From Escherichia coli (GTDB lineage Bacteria; Pseudomonadota; Gammaproteobacteria; Enterobacterales; Enterobacteriaceae): a stretch of 64,000 nt of DNA. Where the stretch lies: assembly GCF_003334385.1 (NCBI RefSeq), contig NZ_QOWN01000024.1, one strand, 5' to 3'. Numbering within the stretch: the stretch's first letter is position 1; every line of letters starts with the position of its first letter. Below, piece by piece: positions 2,899-44,587 of this stretch. Position numbers and translations under genes: made by a program. The notes beneath the pieces are model-generated. The model had not been told where the DNA came from and ran no database searches. It saw only the letters and a program-made list of their open reading frames with translations.

Positions 2899-3009
2899 TC
2901 AGCTAAACAGCCCAATCATCGCGGCACACAGCACGGCAGCAACGGCAGTTTGCGGTGTGTGGCTGTCAACTGCGCCACTCGATACCAGATTAATTATTGA
3001 TTCCAGCAT
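2899..3009 (-). CDS. yshB: small protein YshB (36 aa)
   Basis: Minus-strand ATG at 3009 to TGA at 2899 translates MLESIINLVSSGAVDSHTPQTAVAAVLCAAMIGLFS; below the ORF-track size cutoff; matches remembered K-12 small protein between hemN and glnG. Confidence 0.55.
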   Translation of the reverse strand: MLESIINLVSSGAVDSHTPQTAVAAVLCAAMIGLFS

Positions 3010-3120
3010 AATGACTCTCCCCGTTTTCCGGGCAAGATCATACTGAACTTATCGGAACAGTAAAGCGCAAAATACCAGCAATTTGCGCTCAATAATCAAT
3101 CTTTACACACAAGCCGTGAA

Positions 3121-4530
3121 TCACTCCATCCCCAGCTCTTTTAACTTACGCGTCAGAGTGTTGCGGCCCCAGCCGAGTAGCCGCGCCGCTTCCTGTTTAT
3201 GCCCCTGCGTATGTCGCAACGCGGTCGTCAGTAACGTCCGCTCCAGCTCTGGCTGCGCTTCGGAAAGCAGATTTTGATGACCGGAACGTAGCGCTCTGTC
3301 TGCCCACTGCGCAAGAAGCGTCGCCCAACTGTCCGGTTGCATTTGCGAAGTACTCTCCGCAACCGTTGATTCAAACAGTTCGCCAGGCAAATCCTGAATC
3401 AACACTTCCTGTCCGGCAGCCATTACCGTTAGCCAGCGGCAGGTGTTTTCCAGCTGGCGCACGTTGCCTGGCCACGCCAGACGCGTCAACGCGGCTTCGG
3501 TTTCCGGATGCAGCAACTTCGCTTCTACGCCCAGTTCTCGCGCGGCAACCTGTAAAAAATGGCGCGCCAGGCGGGGAATATCTTCCCGACGCTCACGCAG
3601 CGGCGGCAGATGAACGCGGATAACGTTCAGGCGGTGGAACAGATCCTCACGGAACTTACCTTCCTGCACCCGCTGTTCGAGATTCTGGTGAGTGGCAGCG
3701 ATAATCCGCACATCCACTTTCACCGGCGCATAGCCGCCAACGCGGTAAAACTGGCCGTCTGCCAGCACGCGCAGCAAACGCGTCTGCACATCCAGCGGCA
3801 TATCGCCAATTTCATCGAGAAATAATGTACCGCCATCAGCCTGTTCAAAACGCCCCTGACGAATGGTATTCGCGCCGGTAAACGCGCCTTTCTCGTGACC
3901 AAACAGTTCTGATTCGATCAAATCCTTCGGGATAGCCGCCATATTCAGAGCGATAAATGGCGCTTTGGCTCGCGGACTGTGGCGATGCAGGGCATGAGCG
4001 ACCAGTTCTTTACCGGTGCCGGATTCGCCGTTAATCAGCACGCTAATAGAAGAACGCGAAAGCCGACCGATAATACGGAACACGTCCTGCATGGCTGGCG
4101 CTTCGCCGATGATATCGGTCGTTGGGCCGTTAAGCTGAACATTACGCGGCTGCTGCTGTTCCTGGTAATGACTGATGGCGCGCTCAACCAGCGCCACGGC
4201 TTCGTCGATATCAAACGGTTTGGGCAGATAATCAAACGCCCCTTGTTGATAGGCGCTGACGGCAGCATCCAGATCGGAATGTGCGGTCATAATGATGACC
4301 GGAAGCATCGGATGGCGCTGTTTAATCTGCTTGAGCAGCGCCAGCCCGTCCATTCCCGGCATACGGATATCTGAAAGCAGCACATCCGGCGTTTTGCTCG
4401 CCAGCGCCTCCAGTACCTCCGCGCCGTTCTCAAATGTCGTACAGGTTAAACCCGCTCCAGCGAGCGCACGTTCAAGCACCCAACGGATGGAACTATCGTC
4501 ATCGACTACCCAGACTATCCCTCGTTGCAT
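3121..4530 (-). CDS. glnG: nitrogen regulation response regulator NtrC (sigma54 activator)
   Basis: ORF 3121..4590 trimmed to ATG at 4530 ([23 protein letters not shown]), 469 aa; receiver domain, AAA+ sigma54-interaction motif [11 protein letters not shown]-terminal HTH. Confidence 0.95.
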
Positions 4531-13613: not shown

Positions 13614-15017
13614 TTATAACGTTACGGAAGCCGTTTTTTCTTCTGTCTCAATTTCTTTATTTTTGCGTTGGTTGATTTCCTCAATAATCAACGCAAACCG
13701 TTTTTCATTGAGTGTGTAAAAGAATCCCATCGTCAATGCAGCAATAATTGCCAGTGCACAAGGCCAGATAAAAATGAGCTGACGCAAACCCTGTAATGTC
13801 GCATCACTTTGCGCGATGTTGGGAACATAACCGATTTGCGTCAGCATAATGCCTGGCAAGAAGCCAGCAAGTGCGGCAGAAATTTTACGAAAGAAGGTAT
13901 AACCGGTATAAACAGAACCTTCGGCACGAATACCGGTTTTCCATTCACCGTAATCTACGGTATCTGGTACCAGCGCCCAGTTCAGGCTGTTTACAAAGGC
14001 CGTGCCAAAAAAGGCGACACAAGAGAACATGACGAAAGTGAAAGAGTTACTTCCCCAGAAATAATTCAGGATATCACCAACCGCCCATAGCACCATGCCA
14101 GCTAAATAAACCTGTTTTTTACCAAAACATTTTACAGTTAATGGCACCAGTAATACGCCGACGAGGATGCATCCCATACTGAAGAATCCCATCCACGACA
14201 ATAAATTAATATCATTCAGCACATACTGGGTGTAATAGACCTGAATCGCCAGTTTGATATTAAATGCCGCCAGGGTACACAAGTTAGCAATGCATAAAAC
14301 CAGCAATGGCGGATTCCGAAATATCGCGCAAAAAGATTTGAGAATACTGGCTTTATGTCCGGTTGGTGCTGTGTCCACATAATGCTCTTTGACGCCTCTG
14401 TAGCACAGCATCATAAAAATAAAGCCGCCAATGGAGAACATAAGTGCCGCACAGGCATAACCGACGGTTGAGTCAGAAAAAAGCGACTGCAACGGAATAA
14501 ACGCCACGGTACAAATCAATAGCCCTATGGTTGCACCACCCTGGCGGTAAGCCGCGAGCTGCGCGCGCTCATTCGGGTTTTTGGTAATTGCCGGGATCAT
14601 CGCGCCATACGAGCAGTTCATCAGACTGTATGAAAGCCCAAACATCATAAACAGCGCCGTGGCAATCGTCGTTTTAACCGGCAAACTAAAAGTGGTGGCG
14701 ATAAACTGGAGCGTTGCAATTAACGCCGCCGGAACCGCTGCATATAAAATAAAGGGACGAAATTTGCCTTTAGGCCCAATATTTTTCCGCGAGTCGAGTA
14801 AAAATCCGGTGAGCATATCGGTAAACGCGGTAAAAAACTTCGCCACCAGAAAGATAATCCCGCCATAGTAAGCTGGCATCCCTAATTCATCGGTATAAAA
14901 TTTGAGGAGATACAGAGTACCGATGCTAAGCATTAAATTCGAACCAACGTCGCCCATACCATAGGCGATTTTTTCCCACAGATTCAGTTTTAATGTCAGT
15001 GGATTATGGTCAGACAT
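13614..15017 (-). CDS. yihO: GPH-family sulfoquinovose importer
   Basis: ORF 13614..15023; MSDHNPLTLKLNLWEKIAYGMGD; glycoside-pentoside-hexuronide transporter family; paralog of adjacent yihP. Confidence 0.9.
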   Translation of the reverse strand: MSDHNPLTLKLNLWEKIAYGMGDVGSNLMLSIGTLYLLKFYTDELGMPAYYGGIIFLVAKFFTAFTDMLTGFLLDSRKNIGPKGKFRPFILYAAVPAALIATLQFIATTFSLPVKTTIATALFMMFGLSYSLMNCSYGAMIPAITKNPNERAQLAAYRQGGATIGLLICTVAFIPLQSLFSDSTVGYACAALMFSIGGFIFMMLCYRGVKEHYVDTAPTGHKASILKSFCAIFRNPPLLVLCIANLCTLAAFNIKLAIQVYYTQYVLNDINLLSWMGFFSMGCILVGVLLVPLTVKCFGKKQVYLAGMVLWAVGDILNYFWGSNSFTFVMFSCVAFFGTAFVNSLNWALVPDTVDYGEWKTGIRAEGSVYTGYTFFRKISAALAGFLPGIMLTQIGYVPNIAQSDATLQGLRQLIFIWPCALAIIAALTMGFFYTLNEKRFALIIEEINQRKNKEIETEEKTASVTL

Positions 15018-15056
15018 AATCACTCCTTATAACGCCCCGCAGGGCGTCGTTTATTA

Positions 15057-16442
15057 TTACGCCGTGCGTTTACGGGCTTCTATTTCTTCAACAATGCGGA
15101 CATACATCTTCTCGTTCAGGCTGTAGAAGCAGCCCATCGCTACAATGGTGACTACCGCCAGTGCGCTTGGGTAGATGAAGATCAGCTGGCGCAACCCTTC
15201 AATGGTGTGGTCAGCCTGTGCGACGTTCGGCACATAGCCAATTTGCGTCAGCATCCAGCCGGGGAAGAAACCTGCCAGCGCCTGAGAAACTTTGCGAAAG
15301 AAGGTGAAGCCGGTGTAGACCGTCCCTTCAGAACGGACACCGGTGCGCCACTCGCCGTACTCGACGGTGTCAGAAACCAGCGCCCAGTTCAGGCTGTTAA
15401 CAAACGCCGAACCAAAGAACGCCAGGCAGGAGAAAGCCACAAAGTTGACCGAGCCGCCGCCGAAGAAATAGTTGAGCAGATCGCCCAGCACCCAGATCAG
15501 CAGACCGCCAATATAGACCTTCTTCTTACCAAAACGCCTGACTGCACCAGGCATCAGGAACACGCCGATGAAAATACAGCCCATGCTGAAAAATCCCATA
15601 TATGACAACAGGATGGGATCGTTAAGCACGTACTGGGTGTAATAGACCTGAATGGCGAGCTTGACGTTAAACGCCCCTAAGGTACAGAGGTTGGCAATGC
15701 ACAAAATGAACAGTGGGCGGTTACCGGCAATTGCGCGGAAAGATTGCAACAGGCCTGGCTTTTGCGCCGGATTGGTAGGTTGGGTTTCGACATAACGCTC
15801 TTTCACGCCCGAATAGCAGATCCACATAAACAGCAGGCCAAACAGTGAAAACAGCGTGGCGGCGAAGATATAGCCAAGTTGCTGATTACCCTCGATAAGA
15901 TTCATAACCGGCACGAATCCCACCGTGCACAGCAGCAGGCCCAGCGTAGCGCTGCCCTGACGCCATGCTGCCAGCGAGGCGCGTTCGTTGGGGTTTTTGG
16001 TAATGGCGGGAACCATTGCGCCGTAGGAGCAGTTCATCATGCTGAAAAACAGTCCGTAAAGCATAAACAGAATAGTGGCCATCACCGTTTTACCGGTGAC
16101 ATCGAACGGTGTGCCGATAAAGTTAGCGATTGCCAATAAGGTAACCGGGAATGACGCATACAGAATAAAAGGACGGAATTTACCTTTTGGACCGATCTTG
16201 CGTCGGGAATCCAACATGATGCCGGTTCCCATATCGGTAAAGGCGGTAAAGAATTTCGAGATCAAAAAGATAATGCCGCCATAGGTGCCAGGCAGCCCCA
16301 GAACGTCGGTATAAAACTTCAAAAGATAAAGCGTACCAATATCCAGCAGGATGTTAGAGGCCAGATCGCCGATACCGTAAGAGAGTTTCTCTTTAAAGGG
16401 CAGGCGCAAAGTTGCCGGATCTTCCGTTGTGATGTGACTCAT
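15057..16442 (-). CDS. yihP: GPH-family transporter of the sulfoquinovose cluster
   Basis: ORF 15057..16475 trimmed to MSHITTEDPATL; strong similarity to YihO across the core (LYLLKFYTD..GPKGKFRPFILY). Confidence 0.9.
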   Translation of the reverse strand: MSHITTEDPATLRLPFKEKLSYGIGDLASNILLDIGTLYLLKFYTDVLGLPGTYGGIIFLISKFFTAFTDMGTGIMLDSRRKIGPKGKFRPFILYASFPVTLLAIANFIGTPFDVTGKTVMATILFMLYGLFFSMMNCSYGAMVPAITKNPNERASLAAWRQGSATLGLLLCTVGFVPVMNLIEGNQQLGYIFAATLFSLFGLLFMWICYSGVKERYVETQPTNPAQKPGLLQSFRAIAGNRPLFILCIANLCTLGAFNVKLAIQVYYTQYVLNDPILLSYMGFFSMGCIFIGVFLMPGAVRRFGKKKVYIGGLLIWVLGDLLNYFFGGGSVNFVAFSCLAFFGSAFVNSLNWALVSDTVEYGEWRTGVRSEGTVYTGFTFFRKVSQALAGFFPGWMLTQIGYVPNVAQADHTIEGLRQLIFIYPSALAVVTIVAMGCFYSLNEKMYVRIVEEIEARKRTA

Positions 16443-16487
16443 CGTTATTCTCCATTTGCCCGTGAGTTTCCCCACGGGCGGGCATGA

Positions 16488-18524
16488 TTAGATGTTTTTT
16501 AACGAGGCGAACAGTGCAGCCCATTCGCTGTCGGCGCGATAAAAGACCGGCGGCTTGCCGATGGGCGCTTCAACAGTTATTTCTCCACCGTGGAAGGTTT
16601 CTCCGGTCCAGGCGTGGACCCAGTTATCCTCTGGCAGATAGAGCGTCCAGTCGCTGCGACCTTCTTCGTGTACCGGAGCAACCAGAATGTCGCGACCTAA
16701 CAGGTACTGATATTTCAGGGAATAGGTCTGCGCGTCGTCTTCGTAATGCAGGAACAGCGGGCGCATAACCGGCAGGCCGGACTTCGCATTCAGCGCGACG
16801 GCCTCTTTCAGGTAAGGTTTCAGGGTGGTGAAGACGGTGGTCATACGGGCGAAATGGGCGATGGTTTCCGCGTCGCCGTCAAACTGCCAGTTGTCGCCAG
16901 GACGGTTACCTTCGTGGGTGCGCATCATCGGCGTGAAGGCGCTGAAATCGCACCAGCGCAGCAGCAGCTCTTTGCTGCGCTTCATCTCAAACAGGGTGGT
17001 ATAACCGCCAATGTCGCTGTGATGCAGGCCATGTCCGGTCATTGCCAGAGATAGCGCCGCCGGGACAACCGACGCCAGGCCATCGTCCAGACTCCAGTCC
17101 ACGTTCTGGTCACCCGCCCACATCATGGTGGAGTATTTCTGGCTACCGGTAGAACCGGCGCGCATAAAGAAGAGGATCTCGCCGAGCTTGCCCGTTTCTT
17201 CAAGGGCTTCGTAGTTACATTTCGCCCACAGCGCGGGCCAGGCGTTATGCATAATTTCCGCGCTGATGCCGTTATGCAGGTACGTGTCGGTGGGCAGATA
17301 CTCGCCGAAGTCAGCCATCCAGCCGCCGCAGCCGAGTTCAATCATGTTCTTTTTGATAACTTCCTTGAACCAGGCGTAGGCTTCCGGATTGGTGAGATCG
17401 ACAACGCCGCCGTAGAACTCGCCAAACTCCACCAGATAGTCGCCACCGGCGACATCTTTTGCCAGATAACCGCGCTTTGCCGCCTCTTCGCAGAGATCTT
17501 TATCACTGGCAACATACGGGTTGATATAGGCAAGGAACTGCACGCCCTCTTTGTTCCACTGCTTGATACGCGAATCCAGTTGCGGGTAGTTTTCGCTGTT
17601 CCACTTCCAGTTCCACATCACGCGTTTGCCAAAAGAGGTCATACGAATACCGGACCAGTCCTGCGCCCAGATGCCGTTGACCTTCACGCCCGCGTTACGC
17701 ATGGTGTCCAGTTTCTTCTGGCACACTTCCGTCCCGCCCTGAATGCCGAGCGTTACTCCGTCATAAATCCAGTCGGGCAGTTCTGGCTGGCGTCCCAGCA
17801 GGGCGGTTAATTTTTCCAGCAGGGAGATGTATGTGTCAGCACATTCAAAACGCAGCGTTGCTTTGTCTTCCCACAGCGCCAGTTCATGGTATTCCGGGGC
17901 ACTAAAGTCGAAGTTCATATAGCAACTGTTATCAACATGGCAGTAATACTTCTGCGTGCTGACAAACGTAGGCTGTGGGAAGAAAGTCCAGTAATAGTCG
18001 CCGCCCGCATTTTCTTTGCAGTCGGCCTGCCAGGTGACATAGGTTTGTTTATTGCGACCAACGCCTTGTTCACTGGTCCATAGCGGGAACGGTTTGCCAC
18101 GCAGATCGAAGTAGGAAAACTGTTCGCCGCAGCCGTAGATATGGTCCTCTGGTTGAGCGGCAAGGCGCAGCCAGATACGGTTGTGGTTAAGGTTGTCGTT
18201 TTGTAGTTCCAGCAATAAACGGCCCTGATCGTCGGCAGAGATATTCAGCGTGGCGCTAATGTCAGAACCACGGCTGAAATGGATTAACCAACCATCCGGC
18301 GACTGGCTGACGATGGCGTCGGTAAGCGCAATTTTCTCCTGTAGTTTATCTTTAATGCTGAAATTGCCGCGGAACATATCGATATCCGCAATACCTGAAC
18401 CAATCCATAAACAAGGATTATCTTTGCTATGGGTTAAAATAAGACGCTGTTGAAAATGTAGGGTAAAACTGTCGTTATTCTGATGAAACTGAAAATCTGG
18501 TAATTGTGGGCGTGGCGTATCCAT
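16488..18524 (-). CDS. yihQ: sulfoquinovosidase (GH31 family)
   Basis: 678-aa ORF MDTPRPQLPDFQFHQNNDSF; GH31-like motifs (WMADFGE, HNAWP). Confidence 0.92.
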   Translation of the reverse strand: MDTPRPQLPDFQFHQNNDSFTLHFQQRLILTHSKDNPCLWIGSGIADIDMFRGNFSIKDKLQEKIALTDAIVSQSPDGWLIHFSRGSDISATLNISADDQGRLLLELQNDNLNHNRIWLRLAAQPEDHIYGCGEQFSYFDLRGKPFPLWTSEQGVGRNKQTYVTWQADCKENAGGDYYWTFFPQPTFVSTQKYYCHVDNSCYMNFDFSAPEYHELALWEDKATLRFECADTYISLLEKLTALLGRQPELPDWIYDGVTLGIQGGTEVCQKKLDTMRNAGVKVNGIWAQDWSGIRMTSFGKRVMWNWKWNSENYPQLDSRIKQWNKEGVQFLAYINPYVASDKDLCEEAAKRGYLAKDVAGGDYLVEFGEFYGGVVDLTNPEAYAWFKEVIKKNMIELGCGGWMADFGEYLPTDTYLHNGISAEIMHNAWPALWAKCNYEALEETGKLGEILFFMRAGSTGSQKYSTMMWAGDQNVDWSLDDGLASVVPAALSLAMTGHGLHHSDIGGYTTLFEMKRSKELLLRWCDFSAFTPMMRTHEGNRPGDNWQFDGDAETIAHFARMTTVFTTLKPYLKEAVALNAKSGLPVMRPLFLHYEDDAQTYSLKYQYLLGRDILVAPVHEEGRSDWTLYLPEDNWVHAWTGETFHGGEITVEAPIGKPPVFYRADSEWAALFASLKNI

Positions 18525-32795: not shown

Positions 32796-35700
32796 TTACA
32801 CCTTTTCCACATTCACAAGGAAGGACTTAAACTCCGGCGTCTGCGTGTTCGCATCACCAACGAATGGCGTTAAAGTATTGGCAATAAAGCCTTTTTTAGC
32901 TACGCCTTCATAGCCCCAGTGAATCGGAATACCGATGGTATCGATATCTTTGCCGTTCGCTTTCAGCGTGCGAATACGTTTGGTCACCACCGCTTTGGCT
33001 TTGATATAGCCACGGTTGGAGGAGACTTTCACGGTATCGCCCTGGGCAATGCCAAGTTTATTCGCCAGCGACTCCCCGATTTCCACAAACTGCTCTGGCT
33101 GCAAAATCGCGTTCAACAGCGCGTGTTTGGTCCAGTAGTGGAAGTGCTCGGTCAGACGATAGGTGGTTCCGACATACGGGAACTTATCGGCTTTACCCAA
33201 TGCTTCGGCGTCGTCTTTAAAGATACGTGCAGCCGGGTTCGAGATAACGTTTGGATGCAGCGGGTTAGTTCCCAGCGGCGTTTCAAACGGCTCGTAGTGT
33301 TCCGGGAACGGACCTTCCGCCATCTTATCGAGGGCAAACAGACGCCCCATGCCTTCCTGCTGCATGATAAACGGCCCGACGCCGCTACCCGGAGGCGCTG
33401 CGCTGTAGTCCGGAATATCCCAGCCGGTCCACTTAGTGCCGTCCCATTTCAGCAACTGACGCTTCGGATCCCACGGGTTACCCTGCGGATCTGCGGAGGC
33501 GCGGTTATACAGAATGCGGCGGTTAAGCGGCCATGCCCATGCCCAGCCCAGCGTGTTACCGAGGCCAGACGGATCGGCGTTATCACGGCGTGCCATCTGG
33601 TTGCCTTCCGGCGTCCAGCTACCGGCGAAAATCCAGCAGCCACAGGAGGTTGTACCGTCATCGCGCAATTGGGCGAACGAACTAAGTTGTTGGCCTTTCT
33701 TGACGATAACCGCACCGGTTGCCGGATCGGTAATATCGGCCAGCGCCTTACCGTTGCTCTCCATCGCCACTTCTTCTGAAGATGGCTCATGCGGAATGGC
33801 GTAGTTCCATGTCATGTTCAGCACCTGGTCCGGGTTCGCGCCACCCCGTTCGGCATACATCTTGCGCAAGCGCAGGAAGATACCGGAGAGGATCTCGCCG
33901 TCAGTCAGCGCAATCCCCGGGGCGTCCGCACCTTTCCAGTGCCACTGTAACCAGCGACCTGAGTTAACGATAGAACCGTTCTCTTCCGCGAAGCAGGTCG
34001 ATGGCAGACGGAACACTTCGGTCTGGATCTTCGACGAGTCAACTTCGTTCAGCTCACCGTGGTTCTGCCAGAAGTTAGAGGTTTCAGTGTTCAGTGGGTC
34101 GATGGTGACGAGGAACTTCAGTTTCGACAGACAACCGATCACTTTGTTTTTGTTCGGGAATGAGGCAACAGGGTTAAAGCCCTGGCAGATATAGCCATTG
34201 ACCTTGCCCTCTTTCATCATCTCGAAGTATTGCAGGACGTCGTAGCCTTTATCCCACTTCGGCAACCAGTCAAAGCCCCAGCTATTTTCCGCCGTCGCTT
34301 TATCACCAAAGAAGGCCTTCATCATAGAGACGAAGAATTTCGGGTAGTTGCCCCAGTAGTTTACCTGGCCTTCCAGCAGCGGTTTTGGCGTGTTGGCGGT
34401 AAGGTAGGTTTGCAGATCGGTCTGCTTCTCGCTTGGCAGCGTCATGTAACCTGGCAGGCTCTGCGACAGCAGCCCCAGGTCCGTCAGCCCCTGAATATTG
34501 GAGTGACCGCGCAGGGCGTTAACGCCGCCGCCTGCCATCCCCATATTGCCGAGCAGCAGCTGGATCATCGCCATCGTACGAATGTTTTGCGCACCAACGG
34601 AGTGTTGCGTCCAGCCGAGGGCATACAGGAACGAGGCAGTTTTATCGTGAGCACTGGTTTCTGCGATGTATTCGCAGACTTTCAGGAACGCGTCTTTTGG
34701 CGTACCACAGATGTTTTCAACCACATCTGGCGTGTAGCGGGAAACGTGCTGTTTCAGCAAGTTCCACACGCAGCGCGGATGTTGCAGCGTGGTATCGCGT
34801 TTGGCGAAGCCGTTTTCGTCCAGTTCATAAGTCCAGGAGGATTTATCGTACTTGCGTTTTTCCGCGTCGTAGCCGGTGAACAGGCCATCTTCAAAGCCGT
34901 AATCCTCACGCACGATCAGGCTGGCGTTGGTATAGGCTTCGGTGTATTCGCGGTTGAATTTTTCATTGTTCAGCAGGTACAGCAATACGCCTGACAGGAA
35001 AGCAATGTCAGTACCGGAACGAATAGGGGCATAGTAGTCAGCTACCGCCGCCGTACGCGTAAAGCGAGGATCGATCACAATCAGTTTCGCGCCGTTGTGA
35101 ATTTTGGCTTCCATCGCCCAGCGGAACCCGACCGGGTGAGCTTCAGCGGCGTTACCGCCCATCACCACGACGAGGTTGGCGTTCTTGATGTCGACCCAGT
35201 GGTTGGTCATCGCACCGCGACCAAATGTTGGAGCAAGACTTGCTACCGTTGGTCCGTGTCAGACACGCGCCTGGTTGTCGACCGCGAGCATACCCAGCGC
35301 GCGGGAGAATTTTTGCGTTAAATAGCCGGTTTCGTTACTCGACGCGGAAGCACACAGCATCCCGGTGGAGAGCCAGCGGTTAACAGTCACGCCTTCGGCG
35401 TTTTGCGCAATGTAGTTAGCATCGCGGTCTTCTTTCATCAGTTTGGCGATGCGATCAAACGCCTCTTCCCAACTGATTTGCTGCCATTTATCAGAACCTG
35501 GCGCACGGTATTCCGGAAACTTCAGACGGCTTTCGGAGTGGATGAAATCCACCAGGCCAGCGCCTTTCGGACAAAGTGCACCGCGGTTGACCGGGTGATC
35601 CGGATCGCCTTCGATATGGAAGATAGATGCTTTGGCGTTTTTTGCTCCGTCACCGAGGCTGTACATCAACAGCCCACAGCCTACGGAACAATAGGTGCAG

Positions 35701-35846
35701 GTATTACGGGTTTCGCGGGTGCGCAGCAGTTTATACTGCCGGGTTTCCGCGAGTGCTACGCTGGGTGCAAAACCCAGTGCCGCTGCCGTGGTGCCTGCCA
35801 TACCGCCAGCGCAGATCTTAAAGAACTGCCTTCTGCTGACCTGCAT
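32796..35846 (-). CDS. fdoG: formate dehydrogenase-O catalytic subunit (selenocysteine, molybdopterin)
   Basis: ORFs 35259..35846 (Tat signal MQVSRRQFFKICAGGMAGTTAAALGFAPSVALA) and 32796..35210 lie in one frame, joined across in-frame TGA at 35259-35261 (..ARV-U-HGPTVASLAPTFGRGAMTNHW..); 1016 codons total. Confidence 0.93.
35211..35261 (-). other. in-frame UGA selenocysteine codon and adjacent SECIS region of fdoG
   Basis: TGA (plus-strand tca at 35259-35261) within continuous FdoG coding sequence; bacterial SECIS hairpin expected immediately 3' on the mRNA. Confidence 0.7.
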
Positions 35847-37025: not shown

Positions 37026-38081
37026 ATGAAAAGGAATTTATTATCTTCCGCTATTATAGTCGCCATCATGTCCCTCGGTCTGACGGGTTGTGATGATAAA
37101 AAAGCCGAAACAGAAACGCTCCCGCCTGCCAATAGTCAACCTGCCGCACCAGCTCCTGAAGCGAAACCTACTGAAGCTCCCGTTGCAAAAGCAGAAGCTA
37201 AACCTGAAACACCTGCGCAACCGGTGGTCGATGAACAAGCGGTTTTCGACGAAAAAATGGATGTCTATATCAAGTGCTACAACAAGTTACAGATCCCGGT
37301 ACAGCGCAGTCTGGCGCGTTATGCTGACTGGCTGAAAGATTTTAAACAGGGGCCTACCGGTGAAGAGCGTACTGTTTATGGCATCTACGGCATTAGTGAA
37401 TCCAACCTCGCTGAGTGTGAAAAAGGCGTAAAAAGTGCTGTGGCGTTAACGCCTGCGCTGCAACCAATTGATGGCGTGGCGGTGAGTTATATCGATGCTG
37501 CCGTGGCGTTGGGTAATACCATTAACGAAATGGATAAATATTACACCCAGGAAAATTATAAAGACGATGCGTTTGCGAAAGGGAAAACGCTGCACCAGAC
37601 ATTCTTAAAAAATCTGGAAGCCTTTGAACCTGTAGCCGAATCTTATCATGCGGCGATTCAGGAAATTAATGATAAGCGTCAGCTTGCGGAACTGAAAAAT
37701 ATTGAAGAAAGAGAAGGGAAAACATTCCACTACTACTCTCTGGCAGTCATGATTTCAGCGAAACAAATTAATAACCTGATATCGCAAGATAAGTTTGATG
37801 CAGAAGCGGCAATGAAGAAAGTGTCTGAACTGGAAACGCTGGTGGCGCAGGCCAAAGAAGCGGATAAAGGCGGCATGAATTTCTCGTTTATTAATTCGGC
37901 AGGCCAGTATCAACTCGAGGCTAAAAAATACGTTCGCCGCATCAGAGATAAAGTCCCGTACTCTGACTGGGATAAAGAGCAACTTCAGGACGCAAACTCA
38001 AGCTGGATGGTCGAAGACTCTTTCCCGAGAGCATTACGCGAGTACAACGAAATGGTTGATGACTATAATAGCCTGCGTTAA
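37026..38081 (+). CDS. yiiG: putative lipoprotein YiiG (DUF3829)
   Basis: 351-aa ORF; lipobox LTGC after signal peptide MKRNLLSSAIIVAIMSLGLTGC; Pro/Ala-rich linker. Confidence 0.88.
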   Translation: MKRNLLSSAIIVAIMSLGLTGCDDKKAETETLPPANSQPAAPAPEAKPTEAPVAKAEAKPETPAQPVVDEQAVFDEKMDVYIKCYNKLQIPVQRSLARYADWLKDFKQGPTGEERTVYGIYGISESNLAECEKGVKSAVALTPALQPIDGVAVSYIDAAVALGNTINEMDKYYTQENYKDDAFAKGKTLHQTFLKNLEAFEPVAESYHAAIQEINDKRQLAELKNIEEREGKTFHYYSLAVMISAKQINNLISQDKFDAEAAMKKVSELETLVAQAKEADKGGMNFSFINSAGQYQLEAKKYVRRIRDKVPYSDWDKEQLQDANSSWMVEDSFPRALREYNEMVDDYNSLR

Positions 38082-38102
38082 ACGTTTTTGATGATAAATG
38101 CA

Positions 38103-38127
38103 GTGTCGGATGCGGCGCATCCGACAC
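38103..38127. terminator. bidirectional hairpin between convergent yiiG and the frvR-derived ORF
   Basis: Perfect palindrome gtgtcggatgcggcgcatccgacac. Confidence 0.6.
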
Positions 38128-38130
38128 AGT

Positions 38131-39636
38131 TCACCCCTTGTGAAGTAACTCCATAAATGCCTCATATCCTGTTAACCCGGCAATAACCTCTGCCGGATGC
38201 TGACACAATACGCTTGCCAGATAGCTGAATATTTTCAACTCGTGACGCGCATCGGCGGCGGCGCAGGCGATCAAGACATGGTTAATGACTTCGTTATTCA
38301 CCTCAACTGGTTGGGCGAGGGTAATAAAAAATCCACGAAAACGTCGCTCCTGTTCGCTCCAGCAATGTGGGATGGCGAGGCGATTAACAATCAGGTTTTC
38401 ACCTTCGCCTTCGCGGGCGATGATCCGTTGCGCTTCATCGGCGGTAATATGGTGTTGTGCCACTAATTGCGCACAAATTTGCCGGGTAATATGTTGCCAG
38501 CTTTCACCGCGTACATTCGAATAATGAAAACTTCCGGGGGCAGAGAAAAAACGCTCCGGTTGCTGGCGAATAAATGCCGTCGCCAGAAAATGTTTTATTT
38601 GTTCGATACCGGCAGCCGTAATGATATTTTTTACGGTGATGTAATTATTGACCGCGTCATCCAGTAAATAATGGCTGTTGTTAATGATCAATAACGGCTC
38701 AATCTCTTCGCGAATGGCAACAAGTTCGCTTAAGCTACGGGCAATAATCACCCGACAATGTAAAACATCGCGCTCAATGGCGAGCTGATTAATGGTGGCA
38801 ATCGCGTTCTGGTCCGAGAGCAAAATGATCGGCTGGCGTTCGTTTTGATGCCGCTCCAGCGCACAGGCAAAATACAAACCGATCAGATCGCTGTCGAAAA
38901 GGGGAATATCGAGCTGTTCACGCAGTAGCGTAATAAAGTGCAGACTCATATCAAAGGCCGCAGGCCAGGCGGCTTTCAGGTTATTCATGCTGCTCTGGCG
39001 GTGCTCAGCAATCCACACTGGTGCGGCAAGGCAACGTAATAAATGCCCGGTAATATTCTCAACCAGCTGCGCATCAATAATATTCAATGACGCGATGCCC
39101 GGCACCCTTTGCAGCAACCCCTGCACATTATCGGCTGAAATTACCTGCGCTTGCTGATGCTGTTTCTCTATCAAACCCGTCAGGGTTCTTACAGCGTTAT
39201 CACCAAGAAACAGACCGCTATGTTCAACGATTTGTTTTATCTCGTCACCGGGATATTGCGGCCACTCATCGGTCAGTTGATTACGCAGGGCGTAAATCGC
39301 CAGAATCAGGCTGGAGAGATAATCACCCTGCATGAGCGGCCAGCGGTGTTGGTTGTCGCAGGCCGTGGATAAATGCTGAAGGTTGTCTCGTGTTATGCCC
39401 GCCAGCGGAATTAAAAACGGATCTTTGCGCAGCAAGTTCGCCAGCAAGATAACGCGTTTCTCTTCTTCTACCATGGCAAACAGCAGATTACGCGCTTTGT
39501 CGAGATAGATGGCGTAGTTATGCGCACCGTGAGATTTCAGCACTGCTTCCAGTTCTGGCCAGATGGGATTATGCCGACGCTGATACTCTTCGTGGGCGTC
39601 GGGGTTTACCTGCATGACAAAGGCTTTGCGGATCAT
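38131..39636 (-). CDS. chimeric ORF: RhaM (L-rhamnose mutarotase) N-terminal ~57 aa fused in frame to the C-terminal ~444 aa of an FrvR-like regulator
   Basis: Starts [57 protein letters not shown] (RhaM N-terminus, SD GGAG overlapping rhaD stop); continues [17 protein letters not shown]... to a stop convergent with yiiG, where frvR ends in K-12. Confidence 0.7.
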
Positions 39637-39645
39637 GTTTGCTCC

Positions 39646-40471
39646 TTACAGCGCCAGCGCACTGGCGAGTGGCGTAACGCCGAAACGCTTGCCGAGCGCT
39701 ATCAACTCTTCACGGCTGATGGTCTGTTTCATGCCGCCCATCGAATAAACCTTCACTAATACTTGTGCTGATTTTTCTGCGGTGTCGATTAAACCGAAGA
39801 TTTCATCCAGCGTCGGTCCGCTGCCGAAGACGCCGTGGAAGGGCCACAACACCAGCGAATGTTTTTGCATCTCTTGTGCGGTCGCCTGGCCGATTTCGTC
39901 CGTGCCGGGCACCATCCACGGCAAAATGCCAACGCCATCCGGGAATACCACCAGACACTCGGTGCTGCCTTCCCACAGTTGGCGAGTGAAGACCGCGGTG
40001 TCGTTTTCAAGTACATAGGTGAGGGCGGATCAGGTTGGTGGCGTGGCAGTGCATGATCACCCGATCTTTGCCGTTGGTGGCTTTAATGCGCTCGCAGTGG
40101 GAAAGGAAGTGAGCCGGAAGTTCGGAAGTGGGGACGGCTTCGTTGGTTAACCCCCAAAGAATGTGGTAGCCCGCGCCGTCGCTGTCGACTTTTACGATGC
40201 CTAAGTTAGCCGCAGGATCAAGCTGGACGTTACGGAAGAATTTGCCCGAGCCGGTGACAATAAACGGTGTATTTGCCAGTAAAGGCATGGGCTGGCTGAG
40301 CGGGATATAGCGCGGTTGTTGGTGGAAATTGTCGTGATATGGTGCGATATCGGCGTCATCCAGGCGTAGCGTCAGGTTGCCGCCGTTGCGCTCATCCCAG
40401 CCTTTCAGCCAGGCGTCGGTGGTGGCTTTGATCATTCCCTGGACAAACCAGGACTGAGTAATGTTTTGCAT
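39646..40471 (-). pseudogene. rhaD: rhamnulose-1-phosphate aldolase, disrupted by +1 frameshift
   Basis: N-terminal frame from ATG 40471 ([32 protein letters not shown]...HCHATNLI) runs into RPHLCT-stop at 40007; the C-terminal 101 aa (..[21 protein letters not shown]...[11 protein letters not shown]) are in another frame (39646..39951). Span is 826 nt versus the 825 expected. Confidence 0.8.
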
Positions 40472-40510
40472 GTTCTGTGTTCCTGTAAATTCGGTGTTGT
40501 CGGATGCACG

Positions 40511-40735
40511 ACCCGTAGGCCGGATAAGGCGCTCGCGCCGCATCCGGCAATCAATGCCTGATGCGACGCTGTCGCGTCTTATCAGGCCTACAACTATTGC
40601 CGACCTGTAGGCCGGATAAGGCACTTGTGCCGCATCCGGCAATCAATGCCTGATGCGACGCTGTCGCGTCTTATCAGGCCTACAACTGTTGCCGACCCGT
40701 AGGCCGGATAAGGCGCTCGCGCCGCATCCGGCAGT
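40511..40735. repeat. BIME array: about 2.5 tandem copies of a ~100-bp REP-containing unit
   Basis: Unit gtaggccggataaggcgctcgcgccgcatccggcaatcaatgcctgatgcgacgctgtcgcgtcttatcaggcctacaac(t/a)(a/g)ttgccgac repeated between rhaA stop and rhaD start. Confidence 0.9.
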
Positions 40736-40737
40736 GT

Positions 40738-43750
<3,013 letters not shown>

Positions 43751-44587
43751 ATGACCGTATTACATAGTGTGGATTTTTTTCCGTCTGGTAACGCGTCCGT
43801 GGCGATAGAACCCCGGCTCCCGCAGGCGGATTTTCCTGAACATCATCATGATTTTCATGAAATTGTGATTGTCGAACATGGCACGGGTATTCATGTGTTT
43901 AATGGGCAGCCCTATACCATCACCGGTGGCACGGTCTGTTTCGTACGCGATCATGATCGGCATCTGTATGAACATACCGATAATCTGTGTCTGACCAATG
44001 TGCTGTATCGCTCGCCGGATCGATTTCAGTTTCTCGCCGGGCTGAATCAGTTGCTGCCACAAGAGCTGGATGGGCAGTATCCGTCTCACTGGCGCGTTAA
44101 CCACAGCGTATTGCAGCAGGTGCGACAGCTGGTTGCACAGATGGAACAGCAGGAAGGGGAAAATGATTTACCCTCGACCGCCAGTCGCGAGATCTTGTTT
44201 ATGCAATTACTGCTCTTGCTGCGTAAAAGCAGTTTGCAGGAGAACCTGGAAAACAGCGCATCACGTCTCAACTTGCTTCTGGCCTGGCTGGAGGACCATT
44301 TTGCCGATGAGGTGAATTGGGATGCCGTGGCGGATCAATTTTCTCTTTCACTGCGTACGCTACATCGGCAGCTTAAGCAGCAAACGGGACTGACGCCTCA
44401 GCGATACCTGAACCGCCTGCGACTGATGAAAGCCCGACATCTGCTACGCCACAGCGAGGCCAGCGTTACTGACATCGCCTATCGCTGTGGATTCAGCGAC
44501 AGTAACCACTTTTCGACGCTTTTTCGCCGAGAGTTTAACTGGTCACCGCGTGATATTCGCCAGGGACGGGATGGCTTTCTGCAATAA
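43751..44587 (+). CDS. rhaS: AraC-family activator of rhaBAD and rhaT
   Basis: 278-aa [48 protein letters not shown]-terminal AraC HTH. Confidence 0.95.

Follow-up and report, generated by a model that had tools for sequence, protein, structure and literature searches.

The window (the whole stretch of 64,000 nucleotides of Escherichia coli DNA analysed here) carries a fused rhaM'-'frvR open reading frame on its minus strand, at positions 38131-39636, which begins with ATG and runs for 501 codons according to both the program's list of open reading frames and direct reading. Nucleotide comparison with an intact strain, 210221272, resolves this frame into nucleotides 1-170 of rhaM (39467..39636, minus strand), contributing codons 1-56 and two bases of codon 57, joined straight to nucleotides 414-1749 of frvR with its stop (38131..39466, minus strand), that is, the 3' 1,336 nt of frvR, entering at the third base of codon 57. 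Neither part shows a single mismatch to strain 210221272. The two are joined without any inserted base between 39466 and 39467 (junction sequence CTGTTTGCCATGGTAGAAGAAGAGAAACGCGTTATC), where 3,826 bp are missing in comparison with intact strains. Both endpoints lie in the middle of a codon, in rhaM as well as in frvR, and the hybrid codon 57, GA-A (GA from rhaM, A from frvR), retains the glutamate. In the 501-residue product, residues 1-57 of RhaM are continued by FrvR residues 139-582, and as the reading frames match across the junction, gene callers report one frame of 501 codons.

An earlier note on this DNA had described a chimeric frame of about 57 RhaM codons followed by some 444 codons unrelated to RhaM, with a junction near 39463-39468 and an end convergent with yiiG, at the point where frvR ends in K-12. 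NCBIfam profiles and the nucleotide comparison agree with this make-up, the base-level junction (39467/39466) falls inside the proposed range, and the 3' end is indeed that of frvR. In the profile search, residues 3-60 match the L-rhamnose mutarotase family TIGR02625 (positions 1-58 of 102, 94.0 bits) and residues 54-501 match NF007366, 'putative frv operon regulatory protein' (positions 136-586 of 586, 788.9 bits), while Pfam places rhaM at residues 3-58 and PTS_EIIA_2 at residues 374-479. Residues 58-501 are therefore the C-terminal part of FrvR by profile score as well as by exact identity from frvR nucleotide 414 to the end.

The RhaM part sits where rhaM is expected, its ATG lying 9 nt after the rhaD stop as in K-12. 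The native rhaM ribosome-binding site AAGGAG, read directly at 39642-39647 (minus strand) and identical in intact strains, overlaps the rhaD stop TAA (39646-39648), an arrangement that the earlier note had likened to that of the rhaBADM operon. The enzyme itself is represented only by its beginning. The E. coli mutarotase is a single domain of 104 residues (PDB 1x8d), of which the fusion keeps 57, the C-terminal 47 being gone, in keeping with the proposed loss of the C-terminal half; Pfam rhaM (PF05336) is covered over positions 1-55 of 105, and the TIGR02625 score, reached over 58 of the 102 model positions, stays below the family cut-off (94.0 vs 99.6 bits). Since nearly half of a single-domain fold is missing and the family cut-off is not reached, we infer that mutarotase activity has been lost.

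The FrvR part, by comparison, scores well above the cut-off of its family (788.9 vs 426 bits), though only positions 136-586 of NF007366 are covered, intact FrvR giving 1023 bits over positions 1-586. Pfam recognises HTH_11 (residues 5-60) and EIIA_2 (455-560) in intact FrvR. Searched directly against PDB sequences, FrvR returned no match, and a family profile was needed, for which 85 full-length relatives were collected and also scanned one by one. These relatives contain HTH_11 (80/85), a Mga HTH (40), PRD (43), PTS_IIB (13) and PTS_EIIA_2 (77). The profile matches AtxA (E = 1e-25, profile positions 5-449) as well as AcpB and Mga, and further along the PRDs of LicT/GlcT (positions 243-360), EIIB-Gat (367-452) and the EIIA domains of PtsN/MtlA (450-596). 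An AlphaFold model of intact FrvR (pLDDT 92.9, pTM 0.85) finds MgaSpn, AtxA and an Enterococcus faecalis Mga-like protein as its best Foldseek matches, with PtsN matching the C-terminal domain. Taken together, the profile matches, the domains of the relatives, the model and its structural matches identify FrvR, as modelled, as a Mga/AtxA-like PRD regulator with a C-terminal EIIA domain, in the layout of MtlR/LicR-type activators. A PROSITE-like EIIA pattern did not match FrvR; only its AIPH core was found.

On this map the deletion takes away exactly the part of FrvR that would contact DNA. In the model, strands 125-128 and 132-135 close the second winged helix, and residue 139 opens the helix that comes next, so that the endpoint (T138/E139) falls in the gap between wing and helix, just after a conserved G132-x4-G137 motif; according to the model, FrvR is thus cut exactly at a domain boundary. 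Lacking FrvR residues 1-138, the fusion has lost both HTH_11 and the second winged helix (to about residue 135), as expected from the earlier suggestion that the chimera lacks the N-terminal domain of the regulator. The PRD-like, EIIB-like and EIIA module is kept entire, including two histidines, the invariant H279 of the PRD (H198 of the chimera) and H505 of the EIIA domain (H424 of the chimera), which is conserved in 84 of the 85 relatives. The chimera thereby shares the PRD-like and EIIB-like domains and the conserved histidines with Mga/AtxA and MtlR/LicR regulators, and the C-terminal EIIA domain with the MtlR/LicR-type activators. It differs from all of them in carrying a 57-residue fragment of an unrelated enzyme instead of the HTHs, and in having no target operon. 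The architecture HTH-HTH-PRD-PRD-EIIB-like(-EIIA) accordingly fits the parent FrvR, not the chimera, which has no HTH; nor does the chimera stand at the end of a frvABXR operon, frvA, frvB and frvX being absent from the 64-kb window.

In K-12 and in four other intact strains, the order rhaM-frvA-frvB-frvX-frvR is found at this position. This is the gene order that the earlier note gave for K-12, and the contiguous fused arrangement is not that of K-12. The window and the K-12-type locus (rhaBADM-frvABXR-yiiG) have the same flanking genes, the same rhaM start and ribosome-binding site and the same frvR 3' end convergent with yiiG, with 99.8-100% identity outside the deletion; the fusion allele differs in lacking 3,826 bp and in having rhaM and frvR truncated and joined in frame. 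The missing segment, of the same length relative to K-12 and to the closest intact strain (14468-18293 in the compared sequence of strain 210221272), takes in 145 nt at the 3' end of rhaM, the rhaM-frvA spacer (300 bp), frvA, frvB, frvX and 413 nt at the 5' end of frvR. All three losses proposed relative to K-12 (the 3' part of rhaM, frvABX and the 5' part of frvR) are therefore confirmed. In intact strains the spacer holds, as read by eye, a hairpin and T-run directly after the rhaM stop, which are deleted here; a consensus scan of the intact-strain spacer for promoters and terminators gave fewer matches than shuffled sequence and was uninformative.

Base-by-base comparison with the parental genes reveals no IS end, FRT, lox, cassette or primer-derived sequence at the junction, and the statement that neither IS end nor FRT scar nor cassette remnant is visible there holds to the last base, none being foreign. 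The microhomology (GAAGAA) that had been thought plausible fares differently. The parental sequences share 0 nt of perfect homology abutting the breakpoints, a result also given by 57% of breakpoint pairs placed at random in these genes. A 3-nt overlap reported by BLAST at the junction was rejected as microhomology, as it requires a 1-nt gap; with an overlap obtained only in this way and no perfectly matching base, the GAAGAA proposal is unsupported, and a microhomology-mediated (slippage-type) deletion fails for want of shared breakpoint bases. It thus appears that one spontaneous deletion of 3,826 bp, involving neither IS elements nor sequence homology, would have joined rhaM nucleotide 170 to frvR nucleotide 414 in the ancestor of a minor E. 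coli lineage whose locus is very near K-12 in sequence, the match of reading frames being a matter of chance (one in three). Spontaneous deletions with endpoints in two co-oriented genes are the classical origin of protein and operon fusions, and leave the distal gene to be expressed from the promoter and start codon of the proximal gene. The present case would differ from the classical ones in that no selection for a fusion phenotype was involved, the fusion being a by-product of gene loss.

A transposable element could also have made the deletion, through an IS adjacent deletion or IS-IS recombination whose trace was later lost. Other losses at the yiiG-rhaM locus are bounded by IS1 (in strains ET650 and QL57EC), and the carrier lineage has been IS-active here, with an IS10 in yiiG and IS421 copies nearby. 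As a rule such events leave a single IS copy behind at the junction, as they did in ET650 and QL57EC, whereas no carrier of the fusion has any IS sequence there; this failure to find an IS copy or end led us to set aside an IS-mediated deletion, and a transposon origin seems quite improbable.

Elsewhere in the species the same interval has been lost in other ways. The frvABX genes are present in 4,209 of 5,426 complete E. coli genomes, frv being absent from 22%. ET650 has lost the stretch from yiiG to frvA and QL57EC everything from the 3' end of yiiG to rhaR, with IS1 at the junction in both, and the B2 strain NC101 has no frv, a complete rhaM adjoining a carbohydrate porin gene and a truncated yiiG. 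These alleles concern the same variable locus as that of the window and have the same outcome (no frv PTS), but they differ in having IS1 or other genes at the junction, in keeping rhaM whole or losing the entire rha cluster, and in forming no fused reading frame. Judged by these sequences, the yiiG-rhaM interval is one that has been eroded repeatedly.

The earlier note had left undecided whether the window shows a derived deletion or a lineage that never carried frv. Frv is clearly accessory in E. coli (missing from 1,217/5,426 complete genomes), and B2 strains such as NC101 have other content between yiiG and rhaM, both of which would suit an ancestral arrangement into which frv was inserted in the K-12 line. 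An insertion of frvABX, however, is unable to create the missing halves of two genes: rhaM is cut at nucleotide 170 of 315 and frvR at nucleotide 414 of 1,749, both within conserved coding sequence. The retained part of frvR is moreover identical to that of frv-positive neighbours, and truly frv-less genomes have a full-length rhaM. An ancestral arrangement is hardly credible against this, and since both flanking genes are truncated inside their coding sequences, the deletion is derived.

Among the 5,426 complete RefSeq E. coli genomes, the contiguous arrangement occurs in one, SCU-104, obtained from the rectal swab of a healthy student, in which PGAP annotates two partial pseudogenes at the fusion. 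Looked up by exact sequence in public assemblies, the 501-residue protein turns up on at least 59 contigs (149 blocks), with the reading frame intact in every carrier found, broken versions being invisible to a search of this kind. The carriers include E. coli KTE14, surveillance assemblies, a record labelled Shigella boydii and ENA metagenome assemblies. A 36-nt probe spanning the junction had 0 matches in JGI metagenome contigs, which fits a rare lineage.

All carriers have an identical junction. The closest intact genome, that of strain 210221272, matches the window at 99.93-99.98% identity across the approximately 26 kb aligned either side of the deletion. Within about 15 kb of flanking sequence, window position 35085 is T in 9/9 carriers compared and C in the 4/4 nearest intact strains. 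The carriers differ from one another by few SNPs per 15 kb, some of them marking sub-clades, as well as in IS insertions and in the length of the REP array between rhaA and rhaD. In SCU-104, for instance, unlike the window, yiiG contains an IS10 (ISVsa5) whose 9-bp target duplication corresponds to window positions 37670-37678, an IS421 separates glpK from glpX, and rhaD is intact. A copy of IS421 begins at position 63925 of the window. The identical homology-free junction and the carrier-specific SNP, a single position set against only four intact comparators, suggest that the allele probably goes back to a single ancestral deletion, followed by vertical inheritance and diversification.

A clean, scarless junction that is absent from 5,425 of the 5,426 complete genomes could raise the suspicion of an assembly artefact or of a laboratory deletion made by recombineering. 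The same junction was nevertheless recovered from independent isolates and from metagenome assemblies of different projects, and the carriers vary in SNPs, IS insertions and REP copy number, one of them coming from the rectal swab mentioned above. The junction also shows no sign of design, being mid-codon in both genes and devoid of FRT, lox or primer-derived sequence. An engineered deletion, scarred or scarless, was rejected on these grounds (no foreign sequence, mid-codon endpoints, occurrence in natural isolates and metagenomes). One event with later diversification across carriers speaks against artefact and construct alike, and we give either next to no credence.

The fusion is placed so that it could be expressed with the rhamnose genes. 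Expression of rhaBADM depends on RhaS and starts from the rha promoter (PMC10132054, PMC3870299). In the window, the divergent intergenic region between rhaB and rhaS (43464..43750) holds this RhaS/CRP-dependent rhaBAD(M) promoter, as located from the open reading frames and the colinear annotation of SCU-104. No other promoter is evident upstream of the fusion in this sequence: between this region and the fusion no sigma-70-like site was found on the minus strand other than one weak match inside 'frvR, and a promoter and terminator consensus scan of 37900-43800 yielded fewer matches than shuffled sequence, hence nothing informative. No terminator-like element was seen between rhaD and the fusion. 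Beyond it, a hairpin with a perfect 11-bp stem (38103..38127; -22.4 kcal/mol, z = -4.0) separates the stop codons of the converging genes 'frvR (38131) and yiiG (38081). This hairpin is likely to mark the end of the fusion transcript, a terminator role suggested by its position and stability, although a simple terminator scan did not call it. The fusion would then be the last cistron of a rhamnose-inducible rhaBAD(M) transcript, translated from the rhaM signals wherever rhaD is intact, and in such carriers its product is probably made in the presence of rhamnose.

We consider it very probable that a single deletion, free of homology and of IS elements, took place in a minor lineage and that the fusion it left behind is most likely an inert remnant, a pseudogene. 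The reasoning is that the DNA-binding domains are gone, that the presumed target, the frv promoter and frvABX, is gone with them, and that what remains is not a mutarotase; the product would thus be unable to bind DNA, would have no frv operon to regulate and would lack mutarotase activity. The frame would be that of a pseudogene which happens to stay open, in a lineage that has not existed long enough to show more decay. The loss itself was probably near-neutral, as frv is missing from more than a fifth of complete genomes and mutarotation also proceeds spontaneously, the enzyme merely speeding the reaction.

The fusion could instead be a functional new gene, a rhamnose-induced PRD-EIIB-EIIA regulator without a DNA-binding domain that is kept by selection. 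Such a protein would receive phosphoryl groups from HPr/EI or bind a PTS partner, linking the presence of rhamnose to PTS signalling. The break lies exactly at a domain boundary, the family-invariant His279 and His505 are retained, the fusion is preceded by the rha promoter and by the ribosome-binding site native to rhaM, and many assemblies have an uninterrupted frame. The product could fold and be phosphorylated, given the clean boundary in the model and the retained PRD and EIIA histidines. Against selection, an in-frame joining has a prior of one in three, and carriers that differ by only few SNPs per 15 kb have had too little time for an unselected frame to break; the search for carriers could moreover find exact copies only. 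One sub-clade has already lost the translation of rhaD upstream of the fusion, PGAP treats both parts as pseudogenes, and FrvR itself has no known function, in a system lacking from 22% of genomes. A functional gene of this kind therefore seems very unlikely. The more specific version, in which the fusion is made under rhamnose, folds, and drains or senses HPr~P as a PTS sensor without a DNA-binding domain under the protection of selection, is a shade less likely still. If it were true, the lineage would possess a new rhamnose-dependent input into PTS signalling, and a stable and active fusion protein would be a natural case of a regulatory input created by deletion, though nothing here indicates that. 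The inert remnant is the reading that we retain.

Seen as a remnant, the allele belongs to a familiar category. A spontaneous deletion fusing two co-oriented genes is a well-known kind of mutation and an ordinary form of gene decay, and the yiiG-rhaM interval is already known as a variable spot, to whose recurrent erosion the allele adds an example. Our literature search found no paper describing a rhaM'-'frvR allele, and FrvR was encountered only in listings as a hypothetical transcription factor or among putative PTS genes; the domain map presented above (a Mga/AtxA-like PRD regulator with EIIA) is a small by-product of the present comparison. The allele itself is already in public records, either as two pseudogenes or as a 501-residue product named 'L-rhamnose mutarotase', a label that is wrong. 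The main value of the finding thus lies in the correction of annotation and in strain typing, the junction sequence being a clean, apparently single-origin marker of one minor E. coli lineage.

Decay is further along in the window strain. Its rhaD (39646..40471, minus strand) is split into two open reading frames by an extra C at about 40027/40028 (ATCGCC becoming ATCCGCC), with a stop at codon 155 of 274, and also carries T233I (window position 39800). Among the carriers compared, the frameshift is shared only by GCA_012504395.1, which is identical to the window over 15 kb, frameshift included; rhaD is intact in the remaining carriers. A further match to the window, at 100% identity across both the rhaD frameshift and the chimera, is a Logan contig found in 7 samples. 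This recurrence of the allele in a second assembly and in the 7-sample contig shows that the frameshift is real and marks a sub-clade. It should abolish rhamnose use, so that the window strain is predicted to be unable to grow on this sugar, and it should weaken expression of the fusion: ribosomes would stop some 370 nt before the chimera start, translational coupling would be lost, and Rho-dependent polarity on the fusion is possible in this strain. The earlier note's suggestion that the chimera may be transcribed from the rhamnose promoter hence stays plausible for the lineage, but for the window itself it is weakened by a frameshift upstream that removes the coupling. The same truncated RhaD, lacking T233I, is also encoded on a 7-kb metagenome scaffold with intact rhaM, frvA and frvB, which could reflect a recurrent insertion, recombination or a chimeric scaffold.

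The interval between yiiG and rhaM, occupied by frvABXR in the K-12-type gene order, is a variable locus. The frvABX genes are missing in 1,217 of 5,426 complete genomes, a carbohydrate porin gene replaces frv in B2 strains such as NC101, where yiiG is truncated, and in two strains, ET650 and QL57EC, the interval carries deletions bounded by IS1. Annotation of the 501-aa RhaM-FrvR chimera (38131-39636, minus strand) is inconsistent: some public records (EOU55586.1 among them) name it "L-rhamnose mutarotase", these being from E. coli KTE14 and from one entry labelled Shigella boydii, while PGAP renders the SCU-104 copy as two partial pseudogenes.

The lineage carrying the deletion is IS-active near it, as is seen in the window and in its sister strain SCU-104. 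The final 76 bases of the window (63925-64000) match the first 76 bases of IS421, an IS4-like element, and in all other genomes the match to the window ends at 63924. This copy sits about 181 nt into glpF, which it would disrupt, and it would probably be polar on glpK. SCU-104 has two insertions of its own that are missing from the window: an IS10/ISVsa5 element in yiiG (window-equivalent 37670-37678, with a 9-bp duplication) and an IS421 copy in the glpK-glpX spacer (window-equivalent 61665-61675, with an 11-bp overlap).

The rhaD gene of the window (39646-40471) is a pseudogene. An extra C at about 40027/40028 ends translation at codon 155 of 274, and the allele also bears T233I (39800); a rhamnose-negative phenotype is predicted for the strain. 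The same allele occurs in GCA_012504395.1 and in a Logan contig from seven samples, and is absent from SCU-104, KTE14 and the remaining carriers of the deletion. The 154-aa truncated RhaD is also encoded on a metagenome scaffold (ERZ28647534 scaffold_1301, 3001-4150) on which rhaM, frvA and frvB are intact and T233I is absent. There, the truncation could reflect a same-site C insertion arising again, recombination or a chimeric scaffold.

Upstream of rhaD in the window, the rhaA-rhaD spacer holds a tandem REP/BIME array of 2.4 copies of a 92-bp unit (40509-40733), with two Rfam naRNA4 matches (40518-40588 and 40610-40680). Across carriers with an identical chimera protein, the spacer measures 83, 175, 267 or 441 bp, a spread reflecting either fast change in REP copy number or collapse of the array in short-read assemblies.

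In about 600 bp of 3' frvR sequence (38187-38794), 17 sites set K-12 apart from the window and every close relative, with very few K-12 differences in the rest of the compared blocks; the pattern suggests a K-12 recombination tract. We found no characterisation of FrvR in the literature. Its confident AlphaFold model is that of a Mga/AtxA-like regulator with two HTH domains, a PRD-like region and an EIIB-like domain, to which a C-terminal EIIA domain is added. His279 is invariant in an alignment of 85 FrvR relatives and His505 is kept in 84 of them. FrvR belongs to a small family, with 201 cluster representatives in 1.84 billion at E<=1e-3.

Elsewhere in the window, an Rfam SECIS_3 match (35206-35264) lies where fdoG is split into two ORFs (32796-35210 and 35259-35846); a pseudogene reading was rejected, the split being the selenocysteine TGA that formate dehydrogenase-O normally has. 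In cpxP (51961), SCU-104 has a 12-bp in-frame insertion relative to the window.
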